A DNA stretch of 26,351 bases from Nitrospira sp. GTDB taxonomy: Bacteria; Nitrospirota; Thermodesulfovibrionia; Thermodesulfovibrionales; UBA6898. The stretch covers positions 1-26,351 of the forward strand of contig JBBIUL010000001.1 of NCBI GenBank assembly GCA_037440265.1. The letters run 5' to 3'. The notes beneath the pieces were generated by a model that was given only the letters and a program-made list of their open reading frames with translations, had not been told where the DNA came from and searched no databases. A program made the translations under genes and the position numbers. Below are positions 3,001 through 19,161 of this stretch, piece by piece (positions within the stretch are counted from its first letter, which is position 1; every line of letters starts with the position of its first letter).

Positions 3001-3366
3001 GGCCAGACAGGAGGGGAACTGAAGGGGCTTGAAGGCGGCATCGGGGCAGGAGAGGCAACATCCTTTGTGACCGGCAAGCTGCAGGATGTTCTGGAAGAGC
3101 GCCTGACGTCGATTACCGGTCTTGACCGGCTGCAGATTGACCCGTATGTGTCAAAGACGACCGGCGCCGTTGAACCACGGGTGACGGTATCAAAAAGGCT
3201 GTTAGGCGACAAGATGTTTGTAACCTATACAGCTTCTGTCGGTTCTGTTGAGGAACAGATAATCAAGCTGGAGTATTTCCTGAACAAGCGGGTCTCTTTC
3301 GTCGGTGTCAGGGATGAACGAGGCATACTCGGAGGAGATGTGCGCTTCAGGTTTGAATTCAAATGA
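1..3366 (+). CDS. tamB: TamB / translocation-assembly module protein (AsmA-like, DUF490 C-terminus), 5'-truncated
   Basis: Frame is open from base 1 (ATA CAG GTG AAA...), so the real start lies outside the window. Long Gly/beta-strand-rich taco-like repeats, DUF490-type C-terminus (DMVLRGT...LFGRLE...SSDPPLKEMDILALL...GLDRLQIDP) ending in amphipathic strands (LGGDVRFRFEFK). The stop overlaps the Omp85 start (ATGA at 3363-3366). Confidence 0.9.
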   Translation: MQVKQEGWPDITGDADANLTVHEGTITVNKLVLKSLGSELSGKGEYKDGSADFKTDLRLLLMSAKQMFGLANSGEGKIQASGGVTYRDKTVSVDLDLNGGLYLQTLMELLKVKEKLEGFVEVKGKLQGPLHDLKGKAVASLQSGNLFNVAVDRLNCRISYENGRMDFMDGEGRLYNGSARASASITLPVVDHFNLDITVSDVDSAPVFHLIQWDPGIAHGKVNGSVSSSGEHFNPRGWFAYTSRKKGDDILGRVSDITGKYSMHGSRLELADLKLSTAVSFLSADGNVDIDKKALNLNASMKTSDITDLSSPYYIKLRGSAEYAGRVEGSFDDPVLKGRISIADPVVEEYAADLIDASFLYRKESLNVTEMIVKDKNDVHRLSGSIHFKNANHLFDIALPEYRLQASLKNADLGRFVKIFYKDFEGTGRLTAQLRLSGTAETPLITAEAAVDQAEFYNVPIDAAAFRFGLSGRKMTFSDMKIRRGTTVIHVDSSLDTDGRFAYRASSDKVVLSDIIQRPLKGDIIFSAKSRGEGTFDDPQIQLDAKIINWLFRGKNIGTGTLTGTVKNRDFAVKAGLMNQRIKVEAKGKLLKDIPWEAKIDIESGRYDAILATVLKDVPEDLILSLNGTAALKGDRNHIEGSSVIRHLVLSMYGYSFSNENEIRLDLKDRVLDLNSISMRSGNTLLSINGSLEIGRQYDLTLEGNSALSPFKSLSARIGHLRGDAEFVLSIAGDWESPRLNGGLTLTNGSFGLKDYYYRISAVNGYMYIDNDRIVLEKLNGKIGGGDVDINGILYLKKFSFKRFYLESRLKDINASISDDFDVNFGGNILYKGTLDAQTVSGDIIINRARYRERVEWKSWLLKAKKTETHRAEISRFEKAGLNISITGRNNIHIDNNVARATVTADMVLRGTIYRPILFGRLETKEGKVFFRNNEFRIIQASADFSDPHRINPFMEIASETLIKGYKIKMNLEGQAESFSLALSSDPPLKEMDILALLTVGQTGGELKGLEGGIGAGEATSFVTGKLQDVLEERLTSITGLDRLQIDPYVSKTTGAVEPRVTVSKRLLGDKMFVTYTASVGSVEEQIIKLEYFLNKRVSFVGVRDERGILGGDVRFRFEFK

Positions 3367-6131
3367 ACATGCAATGCAAGAGAGAAAATACATCTGTACT
3401 CCATGGAAAGAATGCTTTCCCGGAATTGCAGATCTCCCTGTTACAGCATGAAACGGCACCCCTTGCAGTGATTTCGTTCATTCTGGCTGTTTTTCTCATC
3501 CTTGCAGCAACTGCTGCCCCGTGTAATGCTGCAGTTGTCAGCAGCATTGAGGTGAAGGGTCTCCATTCCATTGATGAAGACGAATTCCTCAGTATATTTG
3601 GTGTAAAAGCCGGGGACACAATAGACGGTGAGAAGGTCAGGGCCGGGATAAAAAGGGCATTCCTGAAGAATATTTTTGACGATATATCGGTGCATGTCCC
3701 TGACGGCGAATCGCCGCAGGTAATTATCACAGTCAGGGAGAAGGACTATATAGACAAGATCCAGATAAGCGGTTCGTATGAGGTGTCCCGAAAAACGCTT
3801 GAAAGGCTTTTTCTCTTTAAGGAAGATACGGTCATGAGGTATGACCTCATCGGGAAAGCAAAGTCCGATCTCGGGAATGCGCTCATACAGCACGGATTCC
3901 CGGACTCTGAAATAAATATTAAGACTGAGCCTTCGAAAGCCCCCTACCGGATAACCCTGCACCTTGAAGTACATACCGGAAAACCGCTGGTGGTAAGGAA
4001 GATCGTCATCTCCGGAGCAGAACAGGATATCAAGGGCGAAATGAAGCTCTCGGAGGGCGACATTTATGATCAGACCCTTCTTTCGAAAGACCTCAAACGC
4101 ATAAAGGATTTTTATAAGGAGAACCGTCATTACAATCCGGTTGTCGGGCCGTATACATTCAAAGACGGCGAACTTACTGTCCAGGTAATGCCCGGGAAGC
4201 GGCTCAATCTTGCGGTCAACGGAAATAACGCGCTGTCGGGAAAGACGCTGCTGAAGGAGGGGTCCTTTTTTGAACTTGATGAGTTCAGTGATGACCTCGT
4301 CGGCGAGACAATAGAAAGGATGCTGTCTGCTTATCATGAAAAAGGATATGCGTCCGCCCAGATTGCACCGGTGCTGGAAGAACGCGATGAAGAGATTACA
4401 GTAACATTCTTTGTCTTCGAAGGTGAAAAAATAAAGGTCAAAACGGTCCGGTACGAAGGAGTAAAACTTCCGGTAAAGACGCTTGAAGAGATTATGCTCT
4501 CCAAGGCAGGGGGGATCTATAACCCTGCTCATCTTGAAAAGGACAGGGAGACAATCAGGGAATTTTACGTTGCTCTCGGCTACCTTGAAGTTGGGGTTGA
4601 TGCGATCGAGGTGAAGATTGACGAAGCAGCATCTGCAGCCGAACTGACGGTGACCGTTCATGAGGGTGAACGGACGCTGATTTCTTCTGTCGATATTACC
4701 GGTACCACCCCTGAGATCAAGAAAGACCTGCAGTCCCTCTTGGGGATCAAACCGGGGGACCCGTACAATGAGGTTGATATTTCCGATGCACGGTTCAGGA
4801 TGCTCGATTATTACAACAACAAGGGATATCCTTATATTGATGTAACCGTATCCCGCACACTTGAAGACAGAAATGCCACTGTTGTCTTCAATATTGAGGA
4901 AGGAAGGCGGAGCAATTTCGGCAAAACGATTATCGTCGGCAACAAAAAAACCAGACATGAGGTAATAACGAGGGAGCTGGTGCACCGGGAAGGCGACCCG
5001 TACAGTTTTCGCGTACTGGCAACCGAACGCCATAAGTTATACAAGCTTGGACTGTTTACCGATGTGGATATTGAGCCCCTTGACACGGGCAATGATGATA
5101 AGGATGTCCTCATAAAAGTCAGGGAGGCAAACGCAGGTTCGCTGGAGTTCGGATTCGGCTATGCCGAGTATGAGCATTTCAGGGGATTTGCAGAACTCAG
5201 CTACAGGAATTTCTGGGGCATGAACCGGCAGGGGGTCCTCAAGGTGGAGATGAGTTCACTTGATAAAAGATATGTTTTGCAATATCATGAACCCTGGTTT
5301 TTGGGCAGACCGCTCCCTTTCAGGGCGTTCTTTATGTTTGAGGACAAGAAAGAAGTCAACGTTGACAGCAGGGAGACCAGGTACCGGCTTGAGAGGTATA
5401 CGGCAACAGCCGGCATTGAGAAAAAAATAAGCGAAAATATCAGGGCAGAGCTGTATTATGAGTTTTCACTCATCAGGACATTTGACGTTCTTCCTGATGT
5501 GGTGTTGAGCCGGGAAGACCTGGGAACGCTGGCAATCAGCAGTATCAGGACATCGCTGGTTTATGACACAAGGGACAACCCCTTTGAGCCGAGAAAGGGG
5601 ATACTCGCCGGCATTACTCTGAAGATCGCATCCCCTTTCCTGTTTTCTGAAGCTGATTTCAAAAAGCTGACGATCTACGGCAGCACCTTTCACCGGCTGA
5701 CCAGGCGGGTAATACTGGCACTTTCGCTTAGGGGCGGTGTGGCATATGGTGCGAGCAAGGATGAAGAACTGCCGATTGTGGAAAGGTTTTTCCTTGGCGG
5801 CAGGTCTTCTGTGAGGGGATATGAACAGGATACCCTTGGTCCGAAGGGCGCAGACGGGAATCCCACGGGAGGGAATGCCTATCTTGCCGGGAACGTGGAG
5901 TTCAGAACATCCCTGCCAAAGGGTTTCGGGGTGGTAGCCTTTCTTGATGCCGGGAATGTTTGGGTGACTGCATCAGATATAAAAAATCCAGGGATCAGGT
6001 ATACAGCCGGTCTTGGTCTGAGATATGTTACTCCGGTCGGACCGCTCAGGGTCGACTACGGGCATAAACTGAACAAGGAACGAGGTGAGAGTCAGGGTGA
6101 AGTGCATTTCAGCATCGGACATGCCTTTTGA
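3363..6131 (+). CDS. bamA: Omp85-family outer-membrane protein assembly factor (BamA/TamA type) with about 7 POTRA repeats
   Basis: Signal-peptide-like hydrophobic stretch (LAVISFILAVFLILAATAAPCNA), repeated POTRA units, last POTRA 'GKTIIVGNKKTRHEVITREL', barrel motifs 'YDTRDNPFEPRKG' and 'RFFLGGRSSVRGY', C-terminal 'FSIGHAF'. The true start could be downstream of 3363. Confidence 0.9.
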   Translation: MNMQCKRENTSVLHGKNAFPELQISLLQHETAPLAVISFILAVFLILAATAAPCNAAVVSSIEVKGLHSIDEDEFLSIFGVKAGDTIDGEKVRAGIKRAFLKNIFDDISVHVPDGESPQVIITVREKDYIDKIQISGSYEVSRKTLERLFLFKEDTVMRYDLIGKAKSDLGNALIQHGFPDSEINIKTEPSKAPYRITLHLEVHTGKPLVVRKIVISGAEQDIKGEMKLSEGDIYDQTLLSKDLKRIKDFYKENRHYNPVVGPYTFKDGELTVQVMPGKRLNLAVNGNNALSGKTLLKEGSFFELDEFSDDLVGETIERMLSAYHEKGYASAQIAPVLEERDEEITVTFFVFEGEKIKVKTVRYEGVKLPVKTLEEIMLSKAGGIYNPAHLEKDRETIREFYVALGYLEVGVDAIEVKIDEAASAAELTVTVHEGERTLISSVDITGTTPEIKKDLQSLLGIKPGDPYNEVDISDARFRMLDYYNNKGYPYIDVTVSRTLEDRNATVVFNIEEGRRSNFGKTIIVGNKKTRHEVITRELVHREGDPYSFRVLATERHKLYKLGLFTDVDIEPLDTGNDDKDVLIKVREANAGSLEFGFGYAEYEHFRGFAELSYRNFWGMNRQGVLKVEMSSLDKRYVLQYHEPWFLGRPLPFRAFFMFEDKKEVNVDSRETRYRLERYTATAGIEKKISENIRAELYYEFSLIRTFDVLPDVVLSREDLGTLAISSIRTSLVYDTRDNPFEPRKGILAGITLKIASPFLFSEADFKKLTIYGSTFHRLTRRVILALSLRGGVAYGASKDEELPIVERFFLGGRSSVRGYEQDTLGPKGADGNPTGGNAYLAGNVEFRTSLPKGFGVVAFLDAGNVWVTASDIKNPGIRYTAGLGLRYVTPVGPLRVDYGHKLNKERGESQGEVHFSIGHAF

Positions 6132-6678
6132 AAACAGCGATGATTTGCTGAAAAGGCGTAACCAAAAGAGCAAAAACCTCACATGTGCGATTTGTTATTT
6201 TTTGCTTCTTGTTTATTGCCTGGTGTTCGGTGCTCGTTCAAGTTATGCAGAGATCATCGACAGGGTTGTTGCATTTGTTGACGACCAGGCGATCACCCTG
6301 AGTGAACTGAGAGAAGAGCAAGAGGATGTTGTAAAGGTGGCACCAGGCATCACCGAGGAGGAAGTGCTTAACACCATAGTAAACAAAAGACTTCTGCTGA
6401 GAGACGCCAAAAGATACAGAATCGAGGCCCCGACAGAAGAGGAGATTCTGCGGGACTACATCGACCTGAAGGTGAGGGCTTTCATAAGGATCAGCGAGGG
6501 ACAGGCAGAGGAGTTCTACCAGCAGAACGCTGATGGATTTTCCGGGAAACCGTATGATGATGTCCGTGACGAAATTGAGGAATATCTGACTGAGAAGGAA
6601 GTGAACCTGAGGCTGAAGGAGTTGGTGAAGGAACTCAGGGAGAAGGCATACGTAAAGATTCAGTTAAAGGCAGAATAA
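6121..6678 (+). CDS. SurA N-terminal-domain chaperone lacking a parvulin PPIase domain
   Basis: Signal peptide then 'AEIIDRVVAFVDDQAITLSEL', typical of the SurA N-domain, and a C-terminal helix 'LKELVKELREKAYVKI'. No parvulin motifs. ATG 6121 (overlapping the bamA end) is preferred to the GTG at 6085; the exact start is uncertain. Confidence 0.75.
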   Translation: MPFENSDDLLKRRNQKSKNLTCAICYFLLLVYCLVFGARSSYAEIIDRVVAFVDDQAITLSELREEQEDVVKVAPGITEEEVLNTIVNKRLLLRDAKRYRIEAPTEEEILRDYIDLKVRAFIRISEGQAEEFYQQNADGFSGKPYDDVRDEIEEYLTEKEVNLRLKELVKELREKAYVKIQLKAE

Positions 6679-6707
6679 TTCTATCGATTATTGACCCTCT
6701 GTCCTGC

Positions 6708-7379
6708 CTACGTCCTTTTTCTGATGAATTCCTCTATTGCGGCCTGTGTTTTGCTGTCTGCATTTGCAAATGAAATGCCGTACTGAAAGAGCCCCTCATC
6801 GCTTTTGGCAGTTCTGACAACCTTTCCGGTCACCGTCATCTGGCCCGAACCCGGCAGAAAGAACGAGCAGGAGATCAGGCTGTTTACCTTCAGCGGCTTG
6901 TCCGATTCAAGGAGCAACCCGGAAGTGCTGATATCAAGAGATTTACAGAAGAACTGGTCCTTCACGTGCATTCCTTCGACAGATAACTTAAGGAGAACCC
7001 TGACGGACTTCCTTGTCGGTATGTCAAGGAGTCTGCTGATCTTTTCAAGAAAGAGGTCCGATTTTACCGGTCTGGTTATATACGCATTGGCCTTGCAGTC
7101 CTGACATCTTTGTATCTCTGTCCTGCTATTGTTGCAAACCATGAGAACTGATACTTTTTTCAGCGAATCATTTTTTCTTACGATAGAACAGAGCTCATCT
7201 CCCGGGGTTCCCGGTATGTCAAGGTCAATAACCATGAGGTCAACGGGATGGTTCCTGTGAAGGTCAAGGGCCTCCTTGGTGTTCATCGCCGTGAATATCT
7301 GTATGTCTGCCCTGTTGAGGGTGCCTGTCTGCCTTGCAGCGCTATGGACTGATTCAGCAACAATAAGGATTTTTTTCAT
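6708..7379 (-). CDS. Response-regulator receiver + PilZ domain protein (atypical receiver)
   Basis: N-terminal REC fold (KILIVAE..., DLMVIDLDIPG, AYITRPV). C-terminal PilZ with RxxxR (RKSVR) and DxSxxG (DISTSG) c-di-GMP-binding motifs. Confidence 0.85.
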   Translation of the reverse strand: MKKILIVAESVHSAARQTGTLNRADIQIFTAMNTKEALDLHRNHPVDLMVIDLDIPGTPGDELCSIVRKNDSLKKVSVLMVCNNSRTEIQRCQDCKANAYITRPVKSDLFLEKISRLLDIPTRKSVRVLLKLSVEGMHVKDQFFCKSLDISTSGLLLESDKPLKVNSLISCSFFLPGSGQMTVTGKVVRTAKSDEGLFQYGISFANADSKTQAAIEEFIRKRT

Positions 7380-7386
7380 CCTGTTA

Positions 7387-7416
7387 TTTATAAGGCGGGG
7401 CCAAATGTTTTGTCAA
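7387..7416 (-). promoter_or_regulatory. Sigma70-type promoter of the REC-PilZ gene (TTGACA-N18-TATAAA)
   Basis: On the minus strand, TTGACA at 7416-7411 and TATAAA at 7392-7387 with an 18-nt spacer, 7 nt before the ATG at 7379. Confidence 0.6.
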
Positions 7417-7550
7417 GTTGGCGAACAGCAGAACAATTGTATGACAAAAGCTTGCTTCAGATTATTCAGCAAAACAGGCCGAACATATTTTGTATTTTTT
7501 CAGTGTGATTCCATAATAATAAATCAGTGAGTTTCAGGGCTGGCTTCGGG

Positions 7551-7556
7551 TATAAT
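7551..7556 (+). promoter_or_regulatory. Consensus -10 element (TATAAT) of hypC
   Basis: Perfect TATAAT 5 nt before the hypC ATG, no Shine-Dalgarno, only a weak -35 (GTGAGT at 7527-7532). Confidence 0.45.
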
Positions 7557-7561
7557 AAACC

Positions 7562-7810
7562 ATGTGTCTGGCAATACCTTCGAAAATTATCAGCATAGAA
7601 AACCTGATGGCAACGGTAGACGTCTACGGTGCACGCAGGGATGTGAGCCTCCTGCTTATGCCGGATGAGGTTGGCATAGGAGACTATGTCCTTGTGCATG
7701 CCGGATTTGCAATACAGAGGGTCGAGGAGGATATTGCCCATGAATCTCTGAGGCTGATAAAGCAGGTGCTTGATGAGACCGAAGATTCCTATCAGTCAGA
7801 CCCGGATTGA
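7562..7810 (+). CDS. hypC: HypC/HybG/HupF [NiFe]-hydrogenase maturation chaperone
   Basis: Diagnostic N-terminus MCLAIP (Cys2) and 'GDYVLVHAGFAI' with the conserved His; 82 aa. Confidence 0.95.
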   Translation: MCLAIPSKIISIENLMATVDVYGARRDVSLLLMPDEVGIGDYVLVHAGFAIQRVEEDIAHESLRLIKQVLDETEDSYQSDPD

Positions 7811-7863: not shown

Positions 7864-8412
7864 TTGATTAAGAACGACCGGTGGATAAGGGAGATGGCGA
7901 GGAAGGGAATGATAGAGCCGTTTCATGATGATCAGGTCAGAAAAGGGGTAATCTCATACGGGGTCAGCTCCTACGGGTACGATATCAGGGTGTCTGACAC
8001 GTTTAAGATCCCGCGTTACGGCGAAGGCATGATAATTGATCCCAAGAACTTTGACGAACGAAATTTTACCGACTTTAAGGGTGGAATATGCGAAATCCCT
8101 GCCAACTCCTACGTCATCTGCCATTCTGTTGAATACCTGAGGATCCCCAGAGATGTGCTTGTGATCTGTTTTGGAAAATCTACCTATGCGCGGAGCGGGG
8201 TAATTGTGAATATCACCCCTCTTGAACCTGAGTGGGAGGGTTCGATTACCATATCTGTTTCTAACACTTCACCCTTCCCCGCAAGGATATATGCCAACGA
8301 AGGGATCGCGCAGATTGTTTTTCTTGGGGCAACTGAGATGTGTGAAACGTCCTATGCCGACAAGAAAGGCAAGTACCAGGCCCAGAAAGGTATCGGCCTC
8401 CCGAAAATATAA
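7864..8412 (+). CDS. dcd: dCTP deaminase homolog (catalytic Glu position occupied by Ser)
   Basis: '[14 protein letters not shown]', 'DPKNFD', 'GKSTYARSG', 'TPLEPEWEG', 'IYANEGIAQ' and '[15 protein letters not shown]' match the short proteobacterial-type Dcd. TTG start with GGAG 7 nt upstream. Activity is doubtful (see findings). Confidence 0.85.
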
Positions 8413-8416
8413 CCTG

Positions 8417-9130
8417 ATGAAAGAAAAACTTATACTTGCCCTTGATGTCTCAGAGCCTGATTATGCTTTAGAAATAGTCGACAAATTCAGTGGTTATGTC
8501 GATACATTTAAAGTCGGACTTGAGCTTTATACTATCGCTGGTCCTTCGATAATCGAAGAGATACACAAGAGAGGGAAACGGGTTTTTCTTGACCTTAAGT
8601 TTCACGATATCCCAACTACTGTTTCAAAGGCAGGCATCGCTGCAGCACGTATGGGAGTTTATATGTTTAACCTGCACGCCTCTGGCGGCTTCGATATGTT
8701 AAGAAAATGCAAAGATGACGTAGTAAATGTCTGTCTGAAGGAGAACATAAACAGGCCGAGGATACTCGGGGTGACTGTCCTGACCAGTATGTCACGTGAT
8801 GTGCTCAGGGACGAGGCCGGTATTCACCACAGCCTGAATACCCATGTCAAACATCTGGCAGGGCTTTCACTGAAAGCAGGGCTTGACGGCGTGGTTGCAT
8901 CTGCCAATGAGGCTGCCATGATACGGGGCCATTGCGGGAGGGGGTTTCTGATCGTAACTCCAGGCATACGTACGTCATGGACCCCTGTCGACGACCAGGT
9001 GAGGACAATGACTCCAAAGCAGGCAATACGCGAGGGGGCCGACTATCTTGTCATGGGGCGCGCAATCATGAACCAGAAGGACCCTTTGAAGGCAGTAGAA
9101 CTCGTTCAGGCAGAGATTGCTGCTGCCTGA
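8417..9130 (+). CDS. pyrF: Orotidine-5'-phosphate decarboxylase
   Basis: 'LILALD', 'FKVGLELY', catalytic 'DLKFHDIPTTV', 'VTVLTS', 'IVTPGIR', 'GADYLVMGRAI'. Start placed at ATG 8417, 4 nt after the dcd stop, not at 8222. Confidence 0.95.
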   Translation: MKEKLILALDVSEPDYALEIVDKFSGYVDTFKVGLELYTIAGPSIIEEIHKRGKRVFLDLKFHDIPTTVSKAGIAAARMGVYMFNLHASGGFDMLRKCKDDVVNVCLKENINRPRILGVTVLTSMSRDVLRDEAGIHHSLNTHVKHLAGLSLKAGLDGVVASANEAAMIRGHCGRGFLIVTPGIRTSWTPVDDQVRTMTPKQAIREGADYLVMGRAIMNQKDPLKAVELVQAEIAAA

Positions 9131-10781: not shown

Positions 10782-11309
10782 ATGAAGGGTATCATCCCAA
10801 TCTGTCTGAAAGAGATGGTCATTGAGAAATACGGCATTGAGGCCTGGGGCAAATGCCTGCTCAGCACAGGTGCGACCAGCGATATGAATTTCGTTGCAAC
10901 AAGCGATATCGATGACAATGATGTGGTCAAACTGATTGATGCCCTTTGCGCATCTCTTTCAATTTCCCGGCAGGAAGCGGCTGATGCATTCGGGGAATAC
11001 TGGGTATGCAGCTTCTCACAGAGGGTGTACAGCCATTATTATCGTAAATACAAGAATGCCAGAGAATTTATCCTTGCCCTTGACAGCGTTCATGTGGATT
11101 CCACGCGGACCATTGAAAAAGCCAGTCCTCCCCGTTTTGACTATGCCTGGAAAGACGGCAGGACGCTGGTGGTGACATATAAGTCAAAACGAAACCTGAT
11201 CGATTTATTCATCGGGCTGGCAAAGGGTGTCGGCAAACATTACGGCGAGTCGCTCTCCGTGAGAAAGATCGACAGTAACAGCTTTCAGATTGTATTTGAA
11301 AAACAGTAA
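10782..11309 (+). CDS. Stand-alone H-NOX (heme NO/O2-binding, HNOB) protein
   Basis: 'MKGII' start, 'AFGEYW', proximal His in 'LDSVH', 'SPPRF' (Pro115 equivalent), heme-propionate YxSxR motif 'YKSKR', 'GLAKGVGKHY'; 175 aa. Confidence 0.9.
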   Translation: MKGIIPICLKEMVIEKYGIEAWGKCLLSTGATSDMNFVATSDIDDNDVVKLIDALCASLSISRQEAADAFGEYWVCSFSQRVYSHYYRKYKNAREFILALDSVHVDSTRTIEKASPPRFDYAWKDGRTLVVTYKSKRNLIDLFIGLAKGVGKHYGESLSVRKIDSNSFQIVFEKQ

Positions 11310-11312
11310 GGA

Positions 11313-14171
11313 TCAGTGCTGATCCTGCAATTCAATCAATGCCAGGTCGTGGGTGAAGAAAATAAATGATTTTGTGAAAAGGGAGAACAGCTTGGAGCAT
11401 GCTTCGCTGTACAGGCTCATCTGGACCCGGTATTGCTCTGCTACCCCGGCTCGTTCATCCTCTTTCACCGGAAAAGTCTTGTAGTCGTAAATGAATGCAG
11501 TGCCGTTCTCAATGATTACCCTGTCGATTCGCCCTTTATATATCCTGTCACCTTTGTCCAGTATAAACGGCAGTTCAGAATAGGCAACAGGCTTCGGAAG
11601 AATGATGCTGTCAAGATGTCCGGAGTCTCTGAGTTTAGCAAAATCTCCCAGTACCATGGCATGGATCCTTTCCCGATCATCCGGGGACATGAATTCGTTG
11701 AGAAGGAGGATTTCTACACGTTCTGCCAGACGGCTGTAGTCTGTTATGCCTTTGGACAATTCATCAAAGAGCCTGTGGAAAATGATGCCGGGCAAAACCC
11801 AGTCCTGGCCGTGACGGGTCGTCGTCTCGAAATCCTCTGTAACCGTGACCCAATGCCGGGCTTCAGCGGGAAATGCAACTGTTTCCGTATAGGAAGGCCC
11901 GGAAAAAAATCGAGACGAATCAGGGGCCAGAATCTCAGGCGACTTCCTGCATGAAGCGAGAAAATCATGCTCAGATATGAGGTCAAAGAATTCGCTGACT
12001 GATTGTGGATCTGAAAGCATTCCGGGGAAGGCCTCCTCAAGGAGCCCGAACTTCCCTTTCATTTTGACCCTGTCGCTGCTGCTCTTTACCCCGGCCGACA
12101 TGAACAGGTGGTCCATGGTCCTGGTCACCGCAACATAAAAGAGACGCTTTTCCTCTTCCTGTTCTTTTTCCCTGCGGAGCTGGTGGAGCGCGCTCTTTGC
12201 CCTTACGGCGTAGTCCTCCTCGTAAGCGAACCTGACAGTGTTATCGATTTCATCGAGAAACACCGCATCATTTCTTGGTGCCTTTGCCTCATCAAGAGAC
12301 GGCAGAAACACCACAGGGAACTGAAGTCCCTTTGAACCGTGTACGGTCATTATCCTGACTGCATCGAGGCCTTCGGCATTAACATTTGCCTTTGATTCAT
12401 TGCCATCACTTGCACGAATGAGGTCTTCTCGTATCTCTCCGGGAGACAAACCCTGTGCCTCATAATATTCAATGATGCCCAGAAACTTTTTGATGTTGGC
12501 GAGCCGCTGCATCTCCCAAAAGATTTTCCAGCCGCCGGTTTCGGTGAGGAAATCCTCGATGAGGACGGCAAGGGGAAGGCTGTTTTTCAGTGAAAGATAT
12601 CTACGGAGCAGCGTGACGGCTTTCACAGCATGGGTTGCACCGGAACTTCGCAGATTTTCATAGAGGGATATTCGTCTTCGTGAAAGGAGGCTGTAGAGAC
12701 GGGAATCATTCATTCCAAAAAGCGGGCTTCTCAGCAGCACAAAGAGACTGAAGTCGTCATGAGGGTCAGCCAGGAATGATACAAATGCTTTCAGGAGGGC
12801 AACCTCGGGTTCACCATAGAACCCTATGCCTCCGACTACGATATACGGGATCTTATATTCGAGGAGTGAGCTCTCGAATGATTCAAGGTGTGTCCTGCTC
12901 CTCAGGAGTATCGCTATGTCGCCGTACCGGCATTTCCGCGGGAACGCATCAGTATAGATGTCTGTCGCGCCTGTCATGGAGACGATCCTGCGGGAGATGA
13001 GGGAGGCCTCTTTGAGGCGGGTCATTTTGGCGCTCGGTTCAGCTTCGAAAACGAGGAGCTGAACACTTCCTTCTCCTTCCCTCGTCGGCTTGAATGGAGA
13101 ATACGTGGTGCGCCAGGGCTCTGCAAGGGAGCCGTGCATGAGGGATCCGAACAGCCTGTTTGAAAAATGGATTATTTTCGGCAGGCTCCGGTAGTTGTCT
13201 TCTGCCTCGATGTAGACAGATTCTTTACCGAGCCAGTCATGCAGGCGGTCTTTTACTTCATGGAACACCGAGACATTTGCACCCCTGAACATGTAGATAG
13301 ACTGCTTTTCATCACCCACAAGGAAAATCGTTGGGATTTTTCCCCGGGACCGCTTTGCCCCGATACCGGACCGCCACTCTTCTGTGAGCTTGTCTATTAT
13401 TCTCCATTGAAGTGAACTCGTGTCCTGGAACTCGTCAACCAATATGTGGTCGGTATGTTCATCGAACGCATAGAGTATATTCAGCCACCCGGGGTTTGAC
13501 GTCAGGGCGCTGTATGCAAGCGTTTCCATGTCGGAAAAGTCAATTGCGCGGATAACAGATTTTTTCTGTCGGTATTTTTCGTAGCACCGGCCGTACAGTT
13601 CGATGAGGCGGGCTTCTTCAGAATCAGGCATGTTGTCCTTTTCCTCGAGGATGAATTCGGCATAGGGTCTCCGTGCATGGATTGCATCAAGGGTGCGGAA
13701 GAGCAGTCCCCATCCTTTGAGCCCTTTCTCTTTGAGATAATCAAAGAAGACAGACGGACGATCTTTCTCCTCTCGTACAGCATCATAGACAGACTCTGAC
13801 CAGAGCTGGGAGGCCATGGATTCATCAAGCACCTCGAGCGACGGATCAAGGTTGAGTTCCAGTGCAAAACGCTGGATCAGCTTTCTGCAGAAGGCATGTA
13901 TTGTGGTAATGCGCATGAGGGGGCTTTTTTCCTTGATCTTATCAAAAAGGGCGCTGTTTTCTTTCTGGAGAATATTGAGTATGCGGTCCTTCATTTCAGC
14001 AGCGGCCTTTTCAGTGAAGGTGATCGCAAGGATTTTCTCGATCTCTGAACCGTTTTCAAGGAGGCTTATATATCTGCGTGCGAGCTTTTCGGTCTTCCCT
14101 GAACCCGCAGGAGCAGAAATGATGATGCTCTTTTTTGTGTCAAGGTATGCGTCCACGTTCCTGCTGCTCAT
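11313..14171 (-). CDS. addA: AddA-type UvrD-like helicase-nuclease subunit
   Basis: Walker A 'APAGSGKT', 'ILAITFTEKAAAEMK', 'ILVDEFQDTS', 'VGDEKQSIYMFRGA', 'NYRS', 'IAILLRSRTH', 'MTVHGSKGLQF', 'EEKRLFYVAVTR', and C-terminal RecB-type nuclease 'GRIDRV...YDYKT...QMSLY'. Confidence 0.9.
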   Translation of the reverse strand: MSSRNVDAYLDTKKSIIISAPAGSGKTEKLARRYISLLENGSEIEKILAITFTEKAAAEMKDRILNILQKENSALFDKIKEKSPLMRITTIHAFCRKLIQRFALELNLDPSLEVLDESMASQLWSESVYDAVREEKDRPSVFFDYLKEKGLKGWGLLFRTLDAIHARRPYAEFILEEKDNMPDSEEARLIELYGRCYEKYRQKKSVIRAIDFSDMETLAYSALTSNPGWLNILYAFDEHTDHILVDEFQDTSSLQWRIIDKLTEEWRSGIGAKRSRGKIPTIFLVGDEKQSIYMFRGANVSVFHEVKDRLHDWLGKESVYIEAEDNYRSLPKIIHFSNRLFGSLMHGSLAEPWRTTYSPFKPTREGEGSVQLLVFEAEPSAKMTRLKEASLISRRIVSMTGATDIYTDAFPRKCRYGDIAILLRSRTHLESFESSLLEYKIPYIVVGGIGFYGEPEVALLKAFVSFLADPHDDFSLFVLLRSPLFGMNDSRLYSLLSRRRISLYENLRSSGATHAVKAVTLLRRYLSLKNSLPLAVLIEDFLTETGGWKIFWEMQRLANIKKFLGIIEYYEAQGLSPGEIREDLIRASDGNESKANVNAEGLDAVRIMTVHGSKGLQFPVVFLPSLDEAKAPRNDAVFLDEIDNTVRFAYEEDYAVRAKSALHQLRREKEQEEEKRLFYVAVTRTMDHLFMSAGVKSSSDRVKMKGKFGLLEEAFPGMLSDPQSVSEFFDLISEHDFLASCRKSPEILAPDSSRFFSGPSYTETVAFPAEARHWVTVTEDFETTTRHGQDWVLPGIIFHRLFDELSKGITDYSRLAERVEILLLNEFMSPDDRERIHAMVLGDFAKLRDSGHLDSIILPKPVAYSELPFILDKGDRIYKGRIDRVIIENGTAFIYDYKTFPVKEDERAGVAEQYRVQMSLYSEACSKLFSLFTKSFIFFTHDLALIELQDQH

Positions 14172-16867
14172 GATTGTGTCTTTCCCGGTCCAGCATGGAT
14201 GAAGGGGCAGAACGGCGCCTCAGGACAGCTGTTGCAGTAAAACTCCTCAAGGGGATGTGCGAAGAACTGTCCGTCGGCCATGAAGGTTGCAGTGTCTTTC
14301 AGGAATCTGAGAGCGGCCTTGATGTAATCATCGAGAGCGTATTTGTCCCTTTTTGTCGGGATCCATTTTACGTCTATGTCCTTCATGGAATAAATCCCTG
14401 CCTTATCCACATGCATGCCGTATGTACTCAGTATTGCCGAGTAGAGGGGCAGCTGAAGTTCAGTGCCCTTTCTGATGATATCCGCACCGATGGTTGCCGT
14501 CCCTGTTTTATAGTCAATGATCCTGCAGGTGCTGCCGCTGCAGTCGATCCTGTCGATCTTCCCCTTCAGCGAAATGCCGGGGAGTACCTCTGCATTGACG
14601 TTCATCTCAAGTCTGTACGGTGAGAATCCCTCGTCTCTCAGGTTTGCTTCAGTTTCGATGATATCCGGGAGCAGTTCCATGAAGGAGGTCCTGAGAAGCT
14701 GTTTCCAGTATGGTTCCATTACGACTTCATCGAGGACTGCATTGACCGAAGACAGGGCCTTTTCCTGGAAGCGGCTTGTACTGTCAACAGGCTCCTTCAT
14801 GAGGAGTTCCATTATCCTGTGGACAATCGTGCCGAGGGTTTTCGCCTCGGGTTCGTATGCGGCTATTTCAGATGCCTCAAGGTTCAATATCCTTGAAAGG
14901 AAGAACCTCCTGGGGCATTTTCTGAATTGGTCAATATCGGTTACACGGAGAGGCATCGCGAGGTCTTTCACTGCAATTGCAGCTTTTGATTTTTTATCGA
15001 GGGCAACCTCTGTCATAGTGTTTGAGAACAGGTTCCCGCCCTCTCTTGACTGCTGTTCTGCCACTGAAAAAATGCCGAAAATATTTTCAGTACGTTCACT
15101 GCCCCAGGGGAGATATGGTGAGGGCAGGAAAACCTTGTCCCCTTCCATTGCAGGATATGAGAGATGTCGGTTGGCCGAAGCGCCTGCGAGTCTCAGGAGG
15201 TTCAGTTTTTGTATTAGGAGGTACTGGTTCAGGCTGATGAGGCCGAAATCTGTCCTGACCGTATCAGGGAGGATATGATCGATAGGAGGCTTCGAAGGCA
15301 TATCACCGTCCTTCAGGCCGCAGAAGTAGAGGTAATCAGGCTCAAGCCCTCTTGCTTCAAAGAAGTCCATCACCTGGATCCCTTCGCCTTCCTCAACATG
15401 TATTTCTGCGTTAAGAACATGTCTGAGGTAATCGGTGAATTTTTTGAGAGAAACAGTTTTCCTGTCAAAAAGGTCGGAGAGGAGGCTCATGCGGTCAAGC
15501 GCCTTGTTAAGAATGTCTGCATCGCTTTCATCGGCATCGAAATGCAGGGCAGACAGCAATGTTTTCACCGCAGCGCTCAGGGTGTCGAAACCGGAGGAAT
15601 CCCTGATCGTTTCAAGGCCGGAAAGCATGCCAAAAACAACTGAGAAGGCCTCCCGGACATCGTCTTTGAGGTGTTTCAGCCGATCGGGAATGAAAAGATT
15701 TTCCCATGAGGCCCTGCTGTTGAGAATGCCGGATCTTAATGAGAGGGAAGGGATATATTCCCTGAGCACCGCAGGGATGCTCCTGAAATGAGGAGAGGAG
15801 AGCACAGCGGTAAATGGCAGTCTCGGGTAATCATTTGAAACAGATTCCAGAAGCTGAAGCACATCCCGGAAAGGCGCCTTTCCTGCAGCCGGCTTTCCGG
15901 AGGAGAAAACACACGGCAGACCGTATCTCCTGAAAACACGTCCCATGAGCTGTTCGTATGAAGCAATCCTGGGCGCAGTCACGAGGATGAAGTCTCCTGC
16001 CCTGAATCTTCCTGATACAAAGTAGTTTTTTATATGCCGTGCTGTACCTTCTATTTCTTCCTCCGCGCTGCTGTATGAAACATAAGAAAGATCAGGGGGG
16101 GGATGCTCCTCCATCGTTATCTCGGTTGCATGGAACTGATTTTTTATATAGTCGGGAAAGCCGGTTGAGAAGGCCGCCGCATAAGGGACCGCAATCAGCG
16201 TTGTCCCTGATCTGCTGACGAGCACTTCAAGAATGTTCTTTTCCGCTGTTGTCATATCATAAAACCCGTCGGCTATCAGCACTGAAAATTTGCTGAGGCT
16301 GTGCTCCATGGTGTTCCTGCCGAACTGCAGGATGTCATTATCGTCAAAGAGCTTCTGTCTGCTGAGCAGGTCCTGGTAAAGCTCGAAAACATCCAGTGCA
16401 TCATGAAGTCTTTTTAAGGCATCCTCATGCAATCCTTTATTGCTGAATGTCTCTGTGAGTTCTGCACGAATCTGAGGAAGTGGTTTAAAGGGATGATACT
16501 GCTTGAGCTCCTTGAGCAGTTCCGAGAGCACTGCAGCATATCCTGTGCTGTGACCTGATAGTTCGGATATGACCAGCGGAACAAATACTGACGGCAAATG
16601 CCTTGCGGGCATTTCAATCCTGAAGAAATGCTGTGCTATCCGGCTGAAGGTAAAAAACCGCGGCGGTATATACGGGCTCCTGGCTCTGGCGTGAAAAATC
16701 TTCTGGGCAGCCATGAGTTTCTGTTCGGTTGGCGCAAGGTAGATGATTTTTGAATAGTCTGGCCAGGGCACTTTCCCGAGGGATTCTTCTGCGAGAAAGT
16801 CAGTAGATCCCCGGTGAGAGAAGGGCACTGTATACATAACAACCGGCTTCTGCGTTTTATCAGCCAT
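14168..16867 (-). CDS. addB: AddB-type PD-(D/E)XK nuclease subunit with a 4Fe-4S staple
   Basis: Degenerate helicase-like N-terminus ('IADGFYDMT', 'GIQVMDFFEARGL...YFCGL'), nuclease 'GKIDRID...IIDYKTG...LQLPLY', four Cys ('CPRRFF' plus 'CNSCPEAPFC'). ATGA overlap with addA at 14168-14171. Confidence 0.88.
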   Translation of the reverse strand: MADKTQKPVVMYTVPFSHRGSTDFLAEESLGKVPWPDYSKIIYLAPTEQKLMAAQKIFHARARSPYIPPRFFTFSRIAQHFFRIEMPARHLPSVFVPLVISELSGHSTGYAAVLSELLKELKQYHPFKPLPQIRAELTETFSNKGLHEDALKRLHDALDVFELYQDLLSRQKLFDDNDILQFGRNTMEHSLSKFSVLIADGFYDMTTAEKNILEVLVSRSGTTLIAVPYAAAFSTGFPDYIKNQFHATEITMEEHPPPDLSYVSYSSAEEEIEGTARHIKNYFVSGRFRAGDFILVTAPRIASYEQLMGRVFRRYGLPCVFSSGKPAAGKAPFRDVLQLLESVSNDYPRLPFTAVLSSPHFRSIPAVLREYIPSLSLRSGILNSRASWENLFIPDRLKHLKDDVREAFSVVFGMLSGLETIRDSSGFDTLSAAVKTLLSALHFDADESDADILNKALDRMSLLSDLFDRKTVSLKKFTDYLRHVLNAEIHVEEGEGIQVMDFFEARGLEPDYLYFCGLKDGDMPSKPPIDHILPDTVRTDFGLISLNQYLLIQKLNLLRLAGASANRHLSYPAMEGDKVFLPSPYLPWGSERTENIFGIFSVAEQQSREGGNLFSNTMTEVALDKKSKAAIAVKDLAMPLRVTDIDQFRKCPRRFFLSRILNLEASEIAAYEPEAKTLGTIVHRIMELLMKEPVDSTSRFQEKALSSVNAVLDEVVMEPYWKQLLRTSFMELLPDIIETEANLRDEGFSPYRLEMNVNAEVLPGISLKGKIDRIDCSGSTCRIIDYKTGTATIGADIIRKGTELQLPLYSAILSTYGMHVDKAGIYSMKDIDVKWIPTKRDKYALDDYIKAALRFLKDTATFMADGQFFAHPLEEFYCNSCPEAPFCPFIHAGPGKTQS

Positions 16868-16873
16868 TATTGC

Positions 16874-16903
16874 TTTATAGAATAATGCATTTCCGGAAGT
16901 CTA
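16874..16903 (-). promoter_or_regulatory. Candidate sigma70 promoter of addBA (TAGACT-N18-TATAAA)
   Basis: Minus strand TAGACT at 16903-16898 and TATAAA at 16879-16874, 6 nt before the addB ATG; no SD. Confidence 0.4.
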
Positions 16904-17005
16904 TACAACAGACTCTGACCGCAAAGCAATGAGAAATATGTTTGTCTGTAGTGTATCAGGATAGCGCAGGGCTGTTTGAAAAAGCCTGTCAAATCTGTAT
17001 CAAGG

Positions 17006-17818
17006 TCAATCTTTCAAGGTAATTGCCGGTGCAGTAACATGCGAAACGCCGAGCCCTGAGAGAGCGGATTTTCCCCTGACTGTCAGATCAGTTGTGAAAT
17101 GGAATTCATCCCTGCCGTCAACTGGATAAGCCTTTATGCGATAATGGGTCCCCCACGGTTTTTCAGATACCATGACATTTACCGGTCGGTCCAGCTGCAG
17201 GTAAGGACTGGTCAGTGCAACGTCAAGGAGCCTGCGGCGGACTGCCTGCGCGTCATGCCGGGGGTCCAGAAAAAAATCAGCAATGCACAGGTGGGTGTGT
17301 TTTCCGGAATTGGCATTCGAAATACTGGAGTTCCATATTTTCGAATGAGGAATGTTGACCAGCGTGTCATCAGGGGTCAGTACGAGAACGGAGCGGAGGC
17401 CAAGAGACTGTACCTCCCCGTAGACTTCATCAACGGTTATCCAGTCGCCGGGACGGTAGGGCTGTTCCCATACGGCTACGATGCCGGCGATGAGGCTGCT
17501 GAAGTAATCCTTGAAAGCAAACCCCAGCGTCAGTCCGACAGCACCGAAGATTGCAATGAAGTTCTGGACGGTAGGTTTGATAATAAGAGGAACAATGCTG
17601 AAGAAGGCGGCAATCAGGATGGTCAGGCGGAAGATAGGTATCATCGGAGGAAGGATGAGTCTGAATTTGCCGGGGACCCGTTTTGCAAGTGCAAGGATCA
17701 GCCGCTGCAGGATATAAATCATCAGGAAAGCACCTGCAATGATCGATGCGATCAGCAGAAAACTGATGTTCTGGAATTCATGGAATACCTGATAAAAATT
17801 ATTGCCGCTGCCGGTCAT
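17006..17818 (-). CDS. mscS: MscS-family small-conductance mechanosensitive channel
   Basis: Three N-terminal hydrophobic segments, TM3 signature 'GAVGLTLGFAFKDYFSSLIAG', 'YRPGDWI', 'GEVQSLGLRSV', 'IPHSKIWNSSISN'. Strong SD GGAGG upstream. Confidence 0.9.
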   Translation of the reverse strand: MTGSGNNFYQVFHEFQNISFLLIASIIAGAFLMIYILQRLILALAKRVPGKFRLILPPMIPIFRLTILIAAFFSIVPLIIKPTVQNFIAIFGAVGLTLGFAFKDYFSSLIAGIVAVWEQPYRPGDWITVDEVYGEVQSLGLRSVLVLTPDDTLVNIPHSKIWNSSISNANSGKHTHLCIADFFLDPRHDAQAVRRRLLDVALTSPYLQLDRPVNVMVSEKPWGTHYRIKAYPVDGRDEFHFTTDLTVRGKSALSGLGVSHVTAPAITLKD

Positions 17819-17827
17819 ATATGCCTC

Positions 17828-19054
17828 CTAAAGCATATCCGTCAGATAATCCTCTGCAGCCAGATATTTTTTTACTGCAGGATATCCTGAAAGGGTTGTG
17901 CGCCAAAGTCCGTTTTCTTCCTTGATCAGTCCTGCCTGAAGCAGTCTTTGCAGGCTCTTGACGGCGGTTGACTGCTGAATCGAGAGCATCATCGGAAGAA
18001 CATCTTCGTGAATGCCGCCATGGAGGAGCACGGCGTGGAGAACAAAAACATCTGTTTTGGATATCTCATGCGGGATCGCCGGCAGTTCAGTCTGTGCCCA
18101 TGGGCGGACCCAGATAGTGAGCCCCTGATCCATTTTTGCAGCCCTCTGTGCTTCGTCTTCGATGATTGCATCGGCTGATATCTGAAGACAGTTCCTCCAT
18201 ATTGCCCAAGCCACAAGGGGGATGCCGTTGCTCCGCGCAGCGATTATCTTGAGTAAATCGGAAGATTCTTTGTCCCTGTATGTTTCGGACTTTTCCTTCT
18301 TATTGCCGTCTGCCTGATTTACCGTAAGGATCGCCTCTCCGTTGTCAGATTGCCTGAAGATTAAGGTATGTTTGCAGGTTGTCTGTGCCATTGATCTGAA
18401 CCAGTGCTCAAGGCGCTGGCCGTCGAACGGTCTGAGAATAAGCGGGTTCCGAAACTGAGAATCAATGGACAGAACCCTGCTCAGATAGGACCAGGCCCAG
18501 CTGTTGCAGCCGATGATGTAGCGTTGATTCCTTTCCCATACAAAATCGAGGAAATCACGGACAAGCGTCAGTCCGTCAGTGTGCCGGATAAAACACCGTT
18601 CAAGTTCAGGTATTACAACCACCGTGTTTTCGCTGTCTTTGATCACCGAGAGCCATTCTTTGCCTCCGGTGAGTATCTCGGTAGGAGAAGGAGGCTCAAT
18701 GAATTCCCATTTGTGGCTGAGAGAGAGCTGCTCCATGGTCTGTCTCGTGCCGCTCCCGGGAGCCCCGATGATAACCTGGGATGTGTATTCGGGCTTTTCA
18801 GCGTTGATCCATGGCAGGACCGCATCATGCAGCGCAACCGTTTTATCCTCCCAATCAGGTGGCGGTGCTACGGTATCAAGCATCTGCTGGGGGATTGAAC
18901 GAAGTTCTGCATGGATATCGACAGAAACTCCAGCAGGCTTTCGGCGTCGTAGCCAGTCCATGAAGGCCTTAGCCCCTTTGCGCGCGATCTCCGATTTCGG
19001 CTCTGAAAGCCGTTCATAACTGCCCAGCGGGATGAATTGCCAGAGGTCTTTCAT
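17828..19054 (-). CDS. Hypothetical protein with a degenerate P-loop NTPase (AAA+/STAND-like) core and a probable C-terminal winged helix
   Basis: Walker-A-like 'VIIGAPGSGTR' without the Lys, Walker-B-like 'VVVIPELE', 'SNGIP' GxP-like lid, C-terminal 'AVKSLQRLLQAGLIKEENGLW' resembling a wHTH. The stop codon overlaps the mscS SD. The CDS is well supported; the fold is inferred. Confidence 0.65.
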   Translation of the reverse strand: MKDLWQFIPLGSYERLSEPKSEIARKGAKAFMDWLRRRKPAGVSVDIHAELRSIPQQMLDTVAPPPDWEDKTVALHDAVLPWINAEKPEYTSQVIIGAPGSGTRQTMEQLSLSHKWEFIEPPSPTEILTGGKEWLSVIKDSENTVVVIPELERCFIRHTDGLTLVRDFLDFVWERNQRYIIGCNSWAWSYLSRVLSIDSQFRNPLILRPFDGQRLEHWFRSMAQTTCKHTLIFRQSDNGEAILTVNQADGNKKEKSETYRDKESSDLLKIIAARSNGIPLVAWAIWRNCLQISADAIIEDEAQRAAKMDQGLTIWVRPWAQTELPAIPHEISKTDVFVLHAVLLHGGIHEDVLPMMLSIQQSTAVKSLQRLLQAGLIKEENGLWRTTLSGYPAVKKYLAAEDYLTDML

Positions 19055-19161
19055 GGTTCAGTTAAATACACATTTGCCGTTTTGATAGAGTATACAGTAT
19101 TGAGAACGAATAAAGTCATTACATATATGGTACTAAAAACAGGATGCCAATACAAAAGAAA

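Follow-up and report, generated by a model that had tools for sequence, protein, structure and literature searches.

What does an ATPase-like protein do in one operon with a mechanosensitive channel? The question is raised by a stretch of 26,351 nucleotides (nt) from Nitrospira sp. (assembly GCA_037440265.1, contig JBBIUL010000001.1, positions 1 to 26,351), hereafter called the window. Its minus strand carries an open reading frame (ORF) of 408 amino acids (aa) at 19054 to 17828, followed by a 270-aa mscS ORF at 17818 to 17006; we call the two products the partner and the channel. MscS ranks among the most thoroughly studied ion channels, and the usual view is of a self-sufficient homo-heptamer that opens under membrane tension. 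In MscK, MscM, YbiO, YnaI and the bCNG channels with their cyclic-nucleotide domain, a regulatory module is fused to the MscS polypeptide, mostly as an N-terminal or periplasmic extension. The pair described here would likewise add a regulatory module to an MscS core, but as a separate soluble protein. With modest confidence, we favor the reading that the partner serves a dedicated MscS channel as a cytoplasmic subunit without catalytic activity and, we infer, probably tunes its gating. The two-gene module itself is real, widespread and undescribed.

The two genes are closely joined. The partner gene (17828..19054) ends at the coupling junction (17819..17830), which reads ATG CTT TAG GAGGCATAT ATG. 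The sequence GGAGG (17828-17824) overlaps the partner stop codon (17830-17828), from which 9 nt lead to the mscS ATG at 17818, and such translational coupling would have both proteins made together. A first-pass annotation of this DNA had described the same layout, and re-reading the ORFs and the junction returned its coordinates, its 9-nt gap and its overlap of GGAGG with the stop. It had also assigned intergenic regions of its own to the pair on both sides, and these measure 107 nt toward a gene of an MFS transporter (19055-19161) and 138 nt toward addB-addA (16868-17005). The 107-nt region 5′ of the pair (minus strand) is AT-rich and a possible promoter region. No sigma-70 consensus site was found on its minus strand, and a promoter and terminator scan around the pair gave scores no higher than those of shuffled sequences.

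Is the arrangement particular to this genome? Nine metagenomic contexts, retrieved by exact protein look-up, all show an MS_channel gene directly 3′ of the partner gene on the same strand (9/9), with differing remaining neighbors. A hidden Markov model (HMM) of this channel subfamily was built from these nine channels and scanned against the six-frame ORFs of all loci. A scan of one genome per GTDB species yielded 258 partner loci, of which 89 were read for linkage. The linkage is obligatory: all 89 carry a subfamily mscS gene immediately 3′ of the partner gene and on the same strand, scoring 330-490 bits, while other MscS paralogs in the same loci reach 33-82 bits. Both sets of loci bear out the conserved linkage to this MscS subfamily, for which the first-pass annotation had proposed a neighborhood check. 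The commonest gap between the genes is again 9 nt (23/89 loci), an 11-nt overlap occurs in seven loci, and most gaps do not exceed 26 nt. Four whole genomes encode one subfamily channel each, adjoining the partner, beside one to seven other MscS paralogs that score at most 78 bits. The pair is also co-inherited. The pairwise identity matrices of 78 partner/channel pairs correlate with r = 0.86 (Mantel test, 0/999), and therefore the two genes travel together, at a mean identity of 52% for the channel versus 36% for the partner.

The reverse test started from the channel. A subfamily channel is encoded in three of the 151 genomes searched in one order; in two it adjoins a partner gene, and in the third, G464, it does not. 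This copy (L092:2760-3485, contig G464:C185) is 55% identical to the window's channel over residues 64-263. It is devoid of the first transmembrane helix (TM1) and the TM1-TM2 loop, and is preceded on its 5′ side by GGDEF and DUF2391-like ORFs instead of a partner gene. It may be a decayed remnant, or it may hint that the N-terminal part of the channel and the partner go together. As a separate observation, about 16 of 87 loci have two different MscS genes side by side. The second paralog is about 300-335 aa long, contains the first, second and third MS_channel domains and scores 33-82 bits against the subfamily HMM. It stands just 5′ of the partner gene in L045, L060, L063, L065, L066, L078 and L088, and nearby in L023, L030, L044, L053 and L062.

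The partner cannot be named by sequence comparison. No Pfam, NCBIfam or PADLOC family reaches its cut-off over the 408 aa, and these libraries give sub-threshold winged-helix matches only, at residues about 323-385 (TrmB, 16.3 bits versus a cut-off of 25.6; MarR, 12.7 versus 24.6; Sta1, 29 versus 80; Lrs14, also weak and under its cut-off). A profile search of the PDB has the winged helix of TFIIE-alpha as its sole match (E 0.003). The fold is clearer. An AlphaFold2 model built from an 18-sequence alignment (predicted local distance difference test, pLDDT, 83.7; predicted template-modelling score, pTM, 0.85) consists of N-terminal helices, a five-stranded AAA+ alpha/beta core, a helical lid, a C-terminal winged helix and a conserved C-terminal tail, with a short disordered insertion at residues 249-261. 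The core is an alpha/beta/alpha P-loop core followed by the lid, as is typical of AAA+ proteins, and the P-loop-like segment comes after strand 92-97. Foldseek matched the model in the PDB to RuvB (1e-6), Orc1/Cdc6 (4e-6), ORC subunits, p97 and NSF-D2, all with probability 1.00; the Foldseek search and the P-loop fold on which the first-pass annotation had made its proposal depend thus came out in its favor. The Foldseek-independent VIA-align returned Pex1/Pex6 (Z 12.3 over 225 residues), TnsC (Z 11.7) and NSF-D2, the AAA+ matches having Z 10-12.3 across 200-245 residues. With the same program, partner residues 327-407 align with MarR-type winged helices at Z 10-11.4 (root-mean-square deviation 1.3-2.5 Å, 68-80 residues). 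In this structure comparison the winged-helix domain with its MarR-like fold covers residues about 326-400 (17855..18079, minus strand). The match is at the level of the fold, the sequence falling short of the MarR and TrmB families.

The catalytic motifs of this fold are lost. Instead of the AAA+ Walker A motif GxxxxGK[ST], the partner has GAPGSGTR (residues 97-104; 18743..18766, minus strand), that is G97-APGS-G102-T103-R104 with Thr103 at the position of the Walker A lysine. Instead of the Walker B motif hhhhDE it has VVVIPELE (residues 145-152; 18599..18622, minus strand), where Pro149 takes the place of the aspartate and residues 145-148 form a strand in the model. Both motifs, as well as SNGIP (residues 275-279, minus strand, read from the translation), lie where the first-pass annotation had located them. 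It had called the NTPase degenerate, and the Walker A lysine and the Walker B aspartate are indeed missing across an alignment of 210 relatives. Position 103 is T, V, L, N, I or H, lysine not being among the six commonest residues; Pro99 is kept in 197/210 relatives, P149 in 188/210 and E152 in 180/210. The alignment indicates that the family is pseudo-ATPase throughout, with no sign that the window's copy has decayed recently. Conservation is instead high elsewhere. R157 (209/210), H158 (195/210), G161 (207/210), W186, W188, G277, H345, Y391 and D406 are near-invariant. The first three belong to the motif R157-H158-x-x-G161-L162 (18569..18586, minus strand), which stands just after the Walker-B-like strand and forms the core of the predicted channel-binding surface. 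The C-terminal tail E-[GD]-Y-L-x-D-x-[FL] (residues 401-408; 17831..17854, minus strand) is likewise conserved (D406 in 197/210, L404 in 184/210, Y403 in 149/210) and falls within the predicted interface.

Which known family comes closest? The partner's model has the three-domain order of Orc1/Cdc6 and RuvB, an AAA+ core with a lid and a C-terminal winged helix, and their fold (VIA-align Z 10.5 to 2qby_B over 245 residues), at a sequence identity of 10-15%. The partner family differs from them in that the Walker A lysine and the Walker B aspartate are gone, an N-terminal segment and a C-terminal tail are additionally conserved, there is no link to replication or recombination genes, and the predicted binding target is a channel, not DNA. 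We do not file the partner in the Orc1/Cdc6 initiator clade, because it lacks the catalytic motifs and has an acidic winged helix. Archaeal proteins of the ATPase_2/DUF234 type (PDB 2fna and 2qen; Foldseek E 8e-5) resemble it as stand-alone proteins of ~350 aa in which an AAA+ core is followed by a winged helix at the C-terminus, but they keep their Walker motifs (the title of 2qen reads ‘Walker-type ATPase’) and have no known channel linkage. The first-pass annotation had spoken of a STAND (signal transduction ATPase with numerous domains)/AAA+-like NTPase with a winged helix-turn-helix (HTH). The AAA+ core, lid and winged helix, as in Cdc6/Orc1 and RuvB, stand; the STAND part was rejected. 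STAND chains are low in the structure lists (NRC4 at Foldseek rank 36; AVAST5 at VIA-align rank 20 with 121 aligned residues), and the protein stops at residue 408 straight after the winged helix with no sensor-repeat domain. For these two reasons the model points to an AAA+-derived protein, not to a STAND NTPase.

The downstream product is an ordinary MscS in build. It matches PF00924 (MS_channel) at 5e-19 with 68.5 bits against a cut-off of 20.2, and its profile finds the H. pylori and E. coli MscS structures at E 4e-20 to 4e-18 over residues 14-254. The model (pLDDT 90) comprises three long helices, a beta domain and an alpha-beta domain. The defining parts of the family are thus all present, namely the MS_channel beta domain, the pore-lining TM3 and the cytoplasmic alpha-beta domain. 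The channel gene (17006..17818, minus strand) encodes, like E. coli MscS and H. pylori MscS (PDB 2oau and 4hw9), three transmembrane helices with beta and alpha-beta domains, and a pore helix with the GFAxKD kink region is common to all three proteins. Unlike those channels, it is part of a private subfamily (the subfamily HMM gives 330-490 bits to members and at most 82 to other MscS proteins), carries conserved alpha-beta motifs of its own (DVALTSPYLQ, EKPWGTHYRLKAYP and DLTVRGKAAL) and is encoded behind a partner gene in 89/89 loci read. The alpha-beta domain (residues about 174-255; 17054..17299, minus strand) holds the predicted partner-binding helices 190-202 and 235-255. The pair's channel is the sole MscS found in the window's 90%-complete genome, which also encodes MscL on another contig.

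Modelling of the two proteins together, using 78-row paired alignments and one partner with one monomeric channel, supports binding of the partner to the channel's cytoplasmic domain. The interface score ipSAE (interaction prediction score from aligned errors) was 0.73 (runs 0.73, 0.73 and 0.72), and the best control gave 0.00. The 0.73 mark is reached by 58/80 solved complexes and 2/110 mismatched pairs, counts that are only a rough guide, our own alignments having been used. The runs share at least 95% of their contacts, with a partner pLDDT of at least 76. The pass does not reflect a memorized structure, because no homologous complex has been solved, the partner having no PDB relative by sequence. 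The complex modelling that the first-pass annotation had suggested, with the heptamer, thus gave a model that passes its controls in the 1:1 form.

On the channel side, the modelled interface comprises residues 174-175, 196-210, 233-237 and 244-252, which map to helices 190-202 and 235-255 of the alpha-beta domain and the loop connecting them. On the partner side it comprises residues 157-162, 190-194, 333-341 (helix 1 of the winged helix), 356-358 and 401-404. The R157/H158/G161 region contacts MscS residues 199-205 with an expected error of 1.5-2 Å, and tail residues 401-404 contact MscS residues 208-210 and 233. The partner interface is far more conserved than the rest of the protein (3.14 versus 2.07 bits; 0/10000 random sets reach 3.14). 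A channel-binding interface would therefore account for the invariant residues that are kept there despite the dead catalytic motifs.

From these results we draw the following picture. The operon would make a canonical-size three-transmembrane MscS channel of a specialized subfamily together with a soluble AAA+-derived protein of 408 aa that has lost the residues needed to hydrolyze ATP. The partner would grip the two helices of the alpha-beta domain in a cleft whose walls are the former Walker-B-side loop with R157, H158 and G161, the first helix of the winged helix, and the EGYL tail at the C-terminus. Established MscS structures place the alpha-beta helices on the outer face of the cage. 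If they lie there in this channel too, as in E. coli MscS, up to seven partners could decorate the heptameric cage, one per subunit. As an auxiliary subunit the partner might tune opening, adaptation or inactivation, or the access of solutes through the cage, and its remnant nucleotide pocket may sense a cytoplasmic signal to which the subunit responds. The most specific form of this picture, which we put forward more tentatively and with a little under even confidence, is a hetero-oligomeric channel in which a collar of up to seven pseudo-ATPase subunits clamps the cage from outside and gates or inactivates the pore on a cytoplasmic cue, or reports the state of the channel.

Cytoplasmic proteins that bind MscS-type channels are on record. 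FtsZ binds the outer bottom of the alpha-beta domain of E. coli MscS (K258/R259) and slightly slows adaptation and recovery, and the MscS-like PamA of Synechocystis binds the signalling protein PII (PMC4440785). In both cases a cytoplasmic protein sits on the cytoplasmic domain of the channel, as predicted for the partner. However, FtsZ and PII are general cell proteins encoded elsewhere, whereas the partner is dedicated, co-encoded and co-inherited and has no other known role. A literature search returned these two precedents only and no description of an AAA+ or winged-helix MscS partner. The first-pass annotation, which knew of no characterized soluble pseudo-ATPase subunit for MscS, was therefore right in that no dedicated, co-encoded subunit was found, but it had left out the FtsZ and PII binders already reported (PMC4440785).

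Several points weigh against a gating subunit. Genome G464 keeps a subfamily MscS, the copy without TM1 and the TM1-TM2 loop, in the absence of a partner. On the channel side, conservation at the interface does not exceed that of the remaining cytoplasmic domain (2.98 versus 3.12 bits). The predicted binding comes from a model, and the alignments fed into it hold the conservation signal as well; the model is also 1:1 with a monomeric channel, not a heptamer. No fused partner-channel protein was found, which is weak evidence, and a fusion of this kind would in any case be awkward in topology. Finally, the winged helix is foremost a DNA-binding module, and a regulatory role on DNA is possible.

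Two alternatives take up this last point. In the first, the two proteins form a mechanosensory signalling pair: the channel senses, and the partner, resting on the cage, is released or reshaped upon gating or inactivation and then works away from the channel, using its winged helix on DNA or targeting another protein. This alternative draws on the same complex model as the subunit reading, and the recognition helix and the wing do lie outside the modelled interface. It also fits published findings on MscS, whose cytoplasmic region is remodelled when the channel activates or inactivates, and on PamA, which has a signalling protein, PII, as its ligand (PMC4440785). Against it, the winged helix is acidic (median net charge -2, with -1 each for recognition helix and wing; whole-protein median isoelectric point 5.6), no conserved third gene offers itself as a target, and the regions upstream of the operons share no motif. 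In the latter test, which is a weak one, the 5′ regions of 88 loci had no common 7- or 8-mers beyond close kin, and upstream palindromes were barely above shuffles (5.73 versus 5.27). We consider a signalling pair unlikely, if the least so of the alternatives. A plain transcription factor, a MarR-like regulator whose degenerate ATPase-like domain serves as a sensor and which controls the mscS operon with no contact to the channel, appears rather improbable. The MarR-like fold of the C-terminus, weak matches to Sta1, Lrs14, TrmB and Csa3-HTH, the position of the gene as the first of its operon (as with many autoregulators) and one Atlas cluster auto-named ‘putative MarR family transcriptional regulator’ all speak for such a protein. 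Yet every HTH family match is under its curated cut-off, the winged helix is acidic and no conserved operator was seen. Adjacency to one private channel subfamily in 89/89 loci across phyla is not expected of a regulator, the tight translational coupling suggests matched amounts of the two proteins, and the most conserved residues are in the modelled channel interface and not in the recognition helix.

The remaining two alternatives place the function at the membrane. An assembly or stability factor would be a pseudo-AAA+ protein that aids folding, heptamerization or insertion of the channel, or protects it from proteolysis, and remains outside the working channel. Obligatory linkage, predicted binding and the frequent use of AAA+ folds as chaperones are all in keeping with this role, as is the coupling with the partner gene placed first, so that the data do not separate it from the subunit reading. 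In fact, an assembly factor and a signalling pair share the binding evidence with a gating subunit, and computation does not tell the three apart. We nevertheless rate an assembly factor as slightly less probable than a transcription factor, as the partner has no ATPase machinery to do the work and the predicted contact is with the surface of a folded alpha-beta domain. The first-pass annotation had also thought of an anti-phage sensor-pore module, in which infection is sensed by the NTPase-like protein, whose response is to open the channel and so to kill or arrest the cell, and had suggested looking for a defense island. The patchy, transfer-like distribution of the pair (2/301 genomes of the phylum and 2/151 of another order) and its layout of a sensor and a membrane effector are reminiscent of abortive-infection systems. 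Neither PADLOC nor the gene surroundings give support to this idea: PADLOC does not match the channel and gives the partner nothing beyond weak CasR/Csa3 HTH matches (E above 1e-3), the flanks of 87 loci are without recurrent defense genes, and the window's neighbors are housekeeping genes. Moreover, the channel keeps the full canonical MscS build and is the sole MscS in its genome. A defense function is therefore the one that we hold to be very improbable.

If the partner is indeed a channel subunit, no dedicated auxiliary subunit of a prokaryotic mechanosensitive channel would have been described before it, and such a co-inherited cytoplasmic subunit would add a control layer to bacterial turgor and ion homeostasis. 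An unnamed protein family with at least 258 loci, no Pfam or NCBIfam model and no literature found would gain a clear function. It would also illustrate cleanly how an AAA+ ATPase can become a binding module without catalysis, the former active-site side now serving as a protein interface. Three cultured carriers, named interface residues, standard channel-less E. coli strains and patch-clamp assays make the idea directly testable.

How widely is the pair distributed? A word-based search had returned only 19 relatives of the partner; the full profile search over 1.84 billion representatives returned 1787 at E<=1e-3 and 505 at E<=1e-30. Carriers are found in Desulfobacterota, Chloroflexota (Anaerolineae, Caldilineaceae, Promineifilaceae), Thermodesulfovibrionales/Nitrospiraceae, Planctomycetota, Ozemobacteraceae, and Competibacteraceae and other Gammaproteobacteria. 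The three cultured carriers are Desulfoferrobacter suflitae DRH4, Desulforhopalus vacuolatus DSM 9700 and Desulfosediminicola flagellatus IMCC35005. The ESM Atlas contains many unnamed clusters with the partner's shape, and a fold search of it also lists proteins of ~1000 aa, part of which superposes on the whole partner model (template-modelling score 0.68-0.72). Longer or fused forms of the partner (777-2215 aa) were not found in a search with the 78-row alignment, a result that the search tool rates as weak evidence.

Within lineages the partner gene is sporadic. It occurs in 2/301 genomes of the window's phylum and in 2/151 genomes of the order of D. flagellatus, with one copy per genome in the five genomes checked; a search of 40 close relatives of the window's genome found none. 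G260, the other carrier in the window's order, has the pair in a different context, with identities of 43% and 63%. Relatives keep addB-addA, but the 1.5 kb 5′ of their addB contain no counterpart of the pair or of the MFS gene. The pair is thus an accessory insertion in the window's genome. The best explanation of the distribution is a self-contained two-gene operon spread by gene transfer.

The surroundings of the pair vary. Clustering of 1353 flanking ORFs disclosed no third conserved gene, the largest flank family being present in 11 of 87 loci. Genes that recur in these flanks encode sensor kinases, ABC transporters, further MscS paralogs (about 16 loci) and CLC/CBS channels. About six loci (e.g., L010:6249-10347 and L026:6036-9041) have an M50 peptidase/CBS gene and a CLC chloride channel gene with CBS domains 3′ of the pair, and L010 additionally holds a TreT-like glycosyltransferase gene. 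The M50/CBS, CLC and TreT-like neighbors are hints of an ion and osmolyte context. In the metagenomic locus L003, a LemA gene (3157-3717) lies 5′ of the pair and a gene for a DUF2207 membrane protein (5870-7708) lies 3′.

In the window itself the neighbors are housekeeping genes (TamB, an Omp85/POTRA protein, PyrF, TrpE, H-NOX, AddAB, PepF). Directly 3′ of mscS and on the same strand, addB-addA (11313-16867, minus strand) encode a helicase-nuclease of the PD-(D/E)XK and UvrD types. Relatives have the same arrangement, with 49-54% identity for AddB and 69-73% for AddA, and there no MscS pair is found upstream. A stand-alone H-NOX gene (10782-11309, plus strand; HNOB, 2e-36) faces the 3′ end of addA head-on and has no signalling partner beside it. 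At the other end of the window (7-6131, plus strand), a TamB-like gene, whose 5′ end is near the window edge, overlaps by 4 nt with the gene of a 922-aa Omp85 protein. The latter has seven POTRA stretches (Pfam) and is followed by a small SurA_N-like or Skp-like gene. A response regulator with a receiver and a PilZ output domain is encoded by a single gene (6708-7379, minus strand). Finally, in the region 7864-9130 (plus strand) a dCTP-deaminase-like ORF (7864-8412) overlaps the PyrF ORF (8222-9130, TTG start) by about 190 nt, and the true start of PyrF is probably further downstream than the listed TTG.

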